A stretch of 64,000 nt of DNA from Lama guanicoe (lineage: Eukaryota), in contig MU057344.1 in assembly GCA_013239625.1 (NCBI GenBank), positions 19,799,664 to 19,863,663 of the forward strand, given 5' to 3'. The translations under genes were made by a program, and so were the position numbers. Position 1 is the first letter of the stretch. Each line of letters opens with the position of its first letter. The notes beneath the pieces were generated by a model that was not told the origin of the DNA, ran no database searches, and saw only the letters and a list, made by a program, of their open reading frames with translations. Below, piece after piece: positions 51,967-53,347 of the stretch.

Positions 51967-52120
51967 NNNNNNNNNNNNNNNNNNNNNNNNNNNNNNNNNN
52001 NNNNNNNNNNNNNNNNNNNNNNNNNNNNNNNNNNNNNNNNNNNNNNNNNNNNNNNNNNNNNNNNNNNNNNNNNNNNNNNNNNNNNNNNNNNNNNNCTGTT
52101 AAGAAAATAAAACGCAAGAG

Positions 52121-53327
52121 GCCCTTCTTGATTGCTCCTGGATCCAGACTCCAACAGAGCTCCGCAGCAGTGGAAGCTCACAGGTGCGGCTGGCCGCTGG
52201 CGGCTCAGGGAGCGTGGAGTAGCGGCGCGGGGTGCTCGGGAATCATCATCCAGGGACCTTCCCGAGACCACAAGAAAACATGGGGAGAATTTTCCTCACA
52301 GGAGAAAAAGCCAACTCAGTGTTAAAACGCTACCCAAGAGCTAATGGACTTTTTGAGGAGATAAGAAAGGGCAACATTGAGTGTAAACACAAGGAAGAAG
52401 TCTGCACATTTGAAGAAGCAAGAGAGGCTTTCGAATGTAATGAGAAAACTGAATTTTACTTTTCCCTTGGAGCAGAGGGAATAGGCTGTGAATGAACTCC
52501 AACATCAACCGGCTCAGAAAAGAAAGAAAAAAGTTGTTTTGTGTGAAGTTCTATTATGTATGCATTGATGGAAAATTCATTACGTCAGTCAGGGACATGT
52601 CTGCGCCACTCCCCAGACTCCTAACTGTTGGATAAAAGAGTTGATGAGGCAGAGGGAATGCAGATTTTGGAAGTGTCACACCCTGCTGCCTCTGTCTCCA
52701 TCCCCACTGACCGCTGCCCCAGTCCTGCCCCAAGCCCAAGGAAGGAGGAGGATGAGGAGGATCCTAGATGAGGAGTCAGATGACCAGAATTCTAATCCCA
52801 CCCTGCCAGGTAGTTGCCAAACTACCTTGGAAAACAGCCATTTCTGACCCTCAAATTCCTCACCTCTGAAATGGTGATTGTATCTCTTGTCCTGCCTTTC
52901 TCCTGGGGATTTAAAAGGATCTAATGAGATGGTGTGCATGGAAGTAATCTGTAAACTGTGAGGAGCTATCTAGGTGTAAGGTCATAGCATTGTCCTTAAG
53001 GCAGAATCTTCATCCTCTGTTTTCCTAAAATTTATCTGAGTTTTCACACAGTGAGAAATAGACTAGGCTGCCCCATAAATGGCAAACATGTTCCTAATCT
53101 GAGCATGTGGGCTCTTAAACTCCTGTCATTCTCTGGTCTACACCAAAGCTGGGCCAACTTAATGACGACTGCCAGCTCAGCACAAACAGGATTCAGCAGA
53201 TGTTGGCAAGGGAACTGTGATGTATATGGTTAGTTAATAGGTTTTATAAATTTCATGAATTAAAAATGAATAAATGTTGAACCTACTCTCAGAAAAAAAA
53301 AAAAGAAAGAAAAAAAGAAAAAAGAAA
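52121..53327 (+). pseudogene. PRRG1: Processed pseudogene (retrocopy) of PRRG1/TMG1, truncated isoform; ORF 52280..52495 (71 aa)
   Basis: Intronless 5'UTR followed by [49 protein letters not shown] (propeptide and Gla domain); AATAAA 53269..53274; A tail 53293..53327; 20-nt TSD at 52101..52120 and 53328..53347 (1 mismatch). Confidence 0.92.
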
Positions 53328-53347
53328 AAGAAAATAAAAAGCAAGAG

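Follow-up and report, generated by a model that had tools for sequence, protein, structure and literature searches.

The stretch of DNA analysed here (the window, 64,000 nucleotides) contains an intronless copy of PRRG1 that follows its parent through the propeptide and Gla domain and then continues for about 800 nt in other sequence, and the question that it raises is what kind of RNA served as its template. We conclude that the copy is a processed pseudogene, and that its template was likely a polyadenylated PRRG1 RNA in which the Gla exon was spliced to an alternative last exon, giving a 71-residue product without a membrane anchor; we put the probability of this reading at roughly 0.7. The exon is apparently unannotated and lineage-specific. 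The locus is a clean case of a retrocopy that reveals an unannotated exon, and the checkable prediction made for it in a sequence-only reading of the window has largely held.

The retrocopy itself is clearly recognizable from its ends, and the coordinates of its parts are collected in Table 1. The two 20-mers that begin at 52101 and 53328 differ by one base, and TT at 52099–52100 followed by AAGAAAA to 52107 is a single mismatch away from the TT/AAAA-like consensus of the L1 endonuclease target. An AATAAA at 53269 is 18 nt to the 5′ side of the A-tail start at 53293. The right flank, when translated, matches residues 1031–1128 of L1 ORF2p (E = 5e-15), and the left flank is masked up to 52095 by one of eleven N-runs, which together cover 1,674 bases of the window. 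The target, the duplications, the poly(A) signal and the insertion into an old L1 had all been recognized in the sequence-only reading, and each was recovered here. An intronless copy with a poly(A) tail and target-site duplications carries the hallmarks described for processed pseudogenes (PMC5470649), and the copy at 52101–53347 is a real retrocopy of PRRG1, with duplications, an untemplated A-tail, lost introns, lost coding constraint, an L1-type target and an L1 flank. An Rfam scan of 40000–64000 gave no match inside the retrocopy, and a bacterial promoter scan, of no relevance here, gave 0 hits.

Table 1. Parts of the PRRG1 retrocopy and its flanks, in window coordinates.
Feature	Position	Strand	Remarks
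5′ target-site duplication	52101..52120	+	19/20 identical to 53328–53347; TT before
GC-rich 5′UTR from PRRG1 first exon	52121..52238	+	GC content; donor-like end of X1 record 1
Decayed ORF	52280..52495	+	71 aa: propeptide, Gla domain, 14-aa foreign tail
Copy of 161-nt propeptide and Gla exon	52290..52450	+	same length as exon 2348–2508 of L001
Copy of putative alternative last exon	52451..53292	+	14 codons, stop, ~800-nt 3′UTR; source-type contigs
Old dispersed repeat inside exon	52746..52930	+	four weak window copies; matches in unrelated contigs
Poly(A) signals	53259..53274	+	ATTAAA at 53259 in copy and source; AATAAA at 53269 in copy only
Decayed poly(A) tail	53293..53327	+	A-rich; no A-run here in source-type contigs
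3′ target-site duplication	53328..53347	+	19/20 match with 52101–52120
Old L1 ORF2 remnant, recipient of the insertion	53342..53635	+	translated match to human L1 ORF2p

The 5′UTR is GC-rich, as had been proposed, with 63% GC over 52121–52279 compared to 40–44% for the rest. Contigs from four public sequencing runs (X1, DNA; X15, X16 and X17, RNA from two studies) were compared with the copy at 80% likeness, and X1 record 1 matches 52198–52239 and then runs on from a GT donor-like loose end, a point that is crossed by the RNA contigs X15 record 9 and X16 record 17; the 5′ part of the copy is thus also spliced. The intronless propeptide and Gla ORF that had been described is likewise present, with a Pfam Gla domain at residues 25–61 (E = 5e-8) and a match to the TMG1/PRRG1 propeptide in PDB 9wfl. 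Its nearest relatives are PRRG1 proteins, and the exact 71-aa protein is absent from a collection of 15 billion proteins. Similarity to PRRG1 ends with the residues EKT at 52450, where the sequence-only reading had placed it, and this is exactly the end of the Gla exon. In full-length proteins EKT is followed by (K)EFW, the transmembrane helix and PPxY motifs, and V-S stands there in gene models with read-through into the intron. A protein scan of metagenome contigs gave one distant locus from 384 candidates (L001), informative on intron positions only, in which an exon of the same length lies between AG and GT and ends at the same codon. Both the gene models and L001 thus place the junction at the donor of the upstream exon.

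The sequence-only reading left the decay of this ORF unremarked, and we correct it on this point. Compared to its homologues the ORF has the changes Q30K, R35C, E36K, C37H and N53C, at positions where 202 homologues are nearly uniform: Glu36 and Cys37 are present in 202/202, Gln30 in 201/202 and Asn53 in 199/202. K30 and C35 are each seen in 1/202, and K36, H37 and C53 in none. The conserved Glu/Cys core of vitamin K-dependent Gla proteins is broken by E36K and C37H, and a related copy in X15 and X16 contains a 1-base insertion at 52439 that shifts the frame inside the Gla exon. With five changes at near-invariant residues and this frameshift, coding constraint has been lost and, judged from its sequence, the retrocopy is dead.

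Three types of sequence are found among the contigs: the window copy, a copy diverged from it by ~3%, and a source type of the 3′ segment. The ~3%-diverged copy, present in X15 (23 substitutions in ~820 bases) and X16, spans the junction, and we interpret it as the orthologous insertion of a related organism. The source type (X17 records 23 and 24; X1 records 6 and 8; X15 records 13, 14 and 16; X16 record 22) diverges from the window copy by 7% in X1 to 9% in X17, and the X1 contigs, with 27 substitutions in ~372 bases, have alleles and a 9-base insertion in common with those of X17. This comparison leaves out 53 differences, 6 indels, one loose end and two pieces, and the source tail is legible in part. 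Because X1 contains both the window-identical copy (records 2, 5 and 7) and source-type contigs, the presence of a source for the 3′ segment elsewhere in the same genome is supported. Among the 24 runs listed, the words of the copy are present at 78–95% in 14 DNA runs from five organisms and at 7–31% in six RNA runs; a 20-base pattern searched in metagenome contigs gave 0 hits.

The sequence-only reading had predicted that a source segment would be preceded by a polypyrimidine-AG and would end at a poly(A) site, and both features are present. X17 record 23, with 63 substitutions over 52454–53067, extends 668 bases further upstream, and this loose end terminates in TTTTACCTGCAG, which is followed immediately by the codon matching 52451–52453, such that a pyrimidine-rich AG sits exactly at the junction in this one contig of one run; the acceptor is not ideal, with a second AG 16 bases upstream. 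At the other end, X15 record 16, X16 record 22 and X17 record 24 part from the copy at 53267 and proceed as genomic sequence ~20 nt past an ATTAAA, a departure seen in 3/3 RNA runs from two studies, and the match of X1 record 8 ends at the same base. The source contigs are without eight bases here, match again up to the base at which the tail starts, and then run on in non-A sequence, so the tail of the copy reflects true polyadenylation. The eight bases, 53268–53275, hold the AATAAA and were either gained by the copy or lost from the source, and the present signal of the source is therefore the ATTAAA at 53259, ~20 nt before the tail-start point.

No contig from the four runs ties the 3′ segment to PRRG1 or to the X. 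Of the claim that the parent gene made a transcript with an alternative last exon, the source segment with its AG and cleavage point has therefore been recovered and the template was almost certainly spliced, and it is the location of the segment at the parent gene that was not recovered. All junction-spanning contigs are of the retrocopy type, and the Gla-exon bin 52301–52341 is without depth in all four runs, DNA included. X15 record 11 and X16 record 20 were considered as spliced source mRNA and rejected, as they differ from the window by ~3% rather than the 7–9% of the source, are frameshifted, and adjoin contigs without the 9-base insertion of the source; the retrocopy contigs in the RNA runs may be DNA rather than transcripts. 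In X17 we see source-type contigs alone, including the 668 bases upstream of the acceptor, although contigs cannot show absence, and these could be intronic RNA. Depths of contigs are not suited to ranking the parts of a gene, and we do not use as evidence the depths at 53122–53248 in X15 (21.8 for source-type alleles versus 7.5 for those of the retrocopy, with 6.8 for the contig that extends beyond the cleavage point), X16 (10.5 versus 4.6–6.0) and X17 (flat, 6.2 and 6.3).

An old dispersed repeat lies within the 3′ segment. The window has four copies of it, all weak (E = 0.002–0.17); of two control segments, one gave one hit at E = 0.029 and the other none. Unrelated contigs match briefly at 52827–52872. 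The sequence-only reading had placed a MIR at about 52765..52990, and of this the old repeat stands with shifted bounds (52746–52930), and MIR is the SINE name that we assume for it. Because the source-type contigs span the repeat it was already present in the source, in agreement with the proposal that it was part of the template RNA.

Truncation at the donor of the PRRG1 Gla exon is not restricted to this copy. The suggestion that a Gla-only PRRG1 isoform had gone undescribed does not hold, since human isoform 2 (NP_001166957.1, 82 aa; UniProt isoform 2), which clusters with six primate relatives, is truncated at the same exon, and two further short human forms are known in databases. We gathered 219 proteins, of which 207 showed the exon end, and after it 80 are canonical, 75 are read-through-like (a crude class), nine end, and 43 have 32 different other tails that share no sequence. 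None of the 207 has the 14-aa tail of the window (at most 4/14 identities). In cluster 5 of the protein search 40 of 212 members were covered and 15 listed, and hidden isoforms are possible. TSPAN7 read-through is found among the other tails, and in whales, cats, elephant seal, stoat, donkey and gibbon the Gla exon is spliced onto a ferritin heavy-chain-like gene, in several cases in frame (gene models P0076–P0078, P0086–P0089, P0092 and P0180). PRRG1 is absent from four supplementary files of PMC5928244, and no paper on this copy or exon was found in the literature, subscription papers and bioRxiv supplements aside. The class of isoform is thus already known, the gene copy, lineage and exon are new, and the finding extends by one exon the set of truncations at this donor, which occur in many mammals.

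How the two parts of the template were joined can be considered in several ways. A partly deleted canonical last exon was rejected as an explanation for the 3′ segment, as tblastn of all tails against 52451–53292 gave chance-level matches (best E = 0.012). An L1 template-switch chimera, or a product of trans-splicing between PRRG1 RNA and some unrelated RNA, would fit with the segment not being linked to PRRG1 in contigs from the four runs, but it would have to hit to the base both the Gla-exon end (one of ~330 PRRG1-derived positions) and an acceptor-like site (YAG with at least 8/10 pyrimidines, 0.33% of 124,326 window positions), which a template switch would do about once in 10^5 (1/330 × 0.0033). 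With the junction exact at both donor and acceptor and the tail absent from the source, the template was almost certainly spliced and polyadenylated, and we find a chimera hardly credible. The segment might instead belong, as terminal exon, to a neighbouring transcript or to a ferritin-like retrogene behind PRRG1, joined by read-through splicing. PRRG1-ferritin and PRRG1-TSPAN7 read-through models provide precedents, and a 13-residue ferritin-like match at 52570–52608 beat 99 of 100 shuffles, but this match was picked post hoc from more than 100 tails and the segment has no long ORF. A ferritin profile scores −2.3 bits on it, a value that 19 of 65 real pieces of the window reach or exceed; we therefore reject the segment as a ferritin remnant and regard a neighbouring exon as very unlikely.

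A further alternative accepts the same origin but proposes that the last exon is under selection as a regulated switch, one that still cuts PRRG1 short in germline or reproductive tissue and either lowers the level of full-length protein or yields a stable propeptide-Gla microprotein. Its appeal lies in the recurrence of truncation at this donor (human isoform 2 and its six primate relatives, the two short human forms and the ferritin-like fusions) and in the retention of AG and ATTAAA by the source; moreover, for human PRRG1, Table S1 of PMC12548281 (row 1023) gives at least one poly(A) peak of intronic position (chrX:37279898-37279960) that rises with cisplatin. Against it, the tails share no sequence, many of the database forms are automatic models, the source is without the stronger AATAAA, and the product has no evident route into the ER lumen. 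The human peak, we presume, lies upstream of the Gla exon. Overall we consider a selected switch unlikely. A broader proposal, that mammals repeatedly recruit new last exons behind the Gla exon because truncation is useful and that the present exon is still in use, seems to us quite unlikely. If true, the recruited sequences would be an Alu-like exon for primates, ferritin retrogenes for whales and carnivores, and a repeat-bearing exon here; a germline or reproductive-tract switch would make a free propeptide-Gla piece from a membrane receptor, or shut the receptor off; and the retrocopy would make the exon of this lineage ~3 times as old as the separation of the window organism from that of X15/X16.

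We therefore return to a spliced PRRG1 template without a selected role. Cis-splicing would place the exon downstream of the Gla exon, either within the last intron or beyond the canonical last exon. Stop codons in a last exon escape nonsense-mediated decay by an established rule, and with its stop 42 bases into the last exon and thus inside it the RNA should do so. The copy would then have been made in a cell of the germline or early embryo, by L1 target-primed reverse transcription. Retrocopy templates are more often abundant RNAs, which is a mild argument against pure noise, and the exon perhaps belongs to a large set of lineage-specific exons, under weak constraint, that have each captured this donor.

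The product of such an RNA, which the sequence-only reading had proposed to be an anchorless Gla microprotein, is unlikely to be functional. PRRG1 is described as having no signal sequence, with carboxylation taking place in the ER (PMC5578492), and GGCX is described as having luminal domains (PMC13187478), such that the membrane anchor is likely the only way in for PRRG1. The best 19-residue hydropathy, computed on the window ORF as the source tail is legible in part, is −0.12 compared to 3.05 in full-length PRRG1, there is no PPxY, and the predicted source isoform has neither a signal peptide nor a membrane anchor for access to the ER lumen; the tail, as noted, is absent from the 207 homologues. 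The short form therefore likely stays cytosolic and uncarboxylated, missing the ER carboxylase, and an anchorless piece is likely without Gla function, its only likely effect being to divert transcripts from full-length PRRG1. The truncating exon would matter more only if it were regulated and conserved in effect, because little is known of what PRRG1 does and an anchorless form, to be carboxylated, would have to enter the ER by an as yet unrecognized route.

Elsewhere in the window, a cluster of SNORD99, SNORA61, SNORA44 and SNORA16 (Rfam) is located on the minus strand at 45166–46973, with a CpG-rich promoter region at ~47500–48000 that is ~4 kb upstream of the copy and faces away from it. 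Four Rfam tRNA hits (40643–40714, 49445–49507, 62954–63025 and 63122–63193) are probably the heads of tRNA-derived SINEs. ORF pieces resemble what we take to be RCC1, TRNAU1AP and RAB42, and a second, apparently decayed frame at 61312–61965, presumably RAB-like, lies ~3 kb behind the presumed RAB42-like gene at 57067–58559. The L1 ends and the tRNA-like SINE heads look camelid to us.

The age of the insertion can be estimated roughly. Divergence between source and copy is ~3 times that between the two copies, and the insertion is thus ~3 times older than the split between the window and X15/X16 organisms. Camelids have been separated for more than 11 million years according to PMC13751797, and if the organisms are camelids the insertion is roughly 30 million years old or more.

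Several known systems provide comparisons. Human PRRG1/TMG1 isoform 2 departs at the same residue (T57), with loss of the transmembrane helix and PPxY motifs and no hydrophobic segment, but its 25-aa tail, which we assume to be Alu-derived, is unrelated, and the window exon is a different sequence that holds an older repeat. We take PRRG1 to be X-linked and the RCC1–RAB42 genes of the window to be autosomal. Functional out-of-X retrogenes (PMC4772013, PMC5470649) are similarly autosomal copies of X genes; the frame of the window copy, in contrast, has decayed, and the copy therefore cannot replace its parent. As in reports of intronic polyadenylation and alternative last exons, some isoforms of which give microproteins (PMC5928244, PMC12548281), an intronic terminal exon would truncate the coding region, although here the intron position is inferred and the product predicted from the DNA. 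Finally, it is an established idea that L1-mediated processed pseudogenes preserve a record of transcript isoforms (Shemesh et al. 2006, via PMC4772013), and here too an intronless copy keeps a splice form that is missing from annotation; the present case differs from those in gene, lineage and exon alone, and in nothing of kind.
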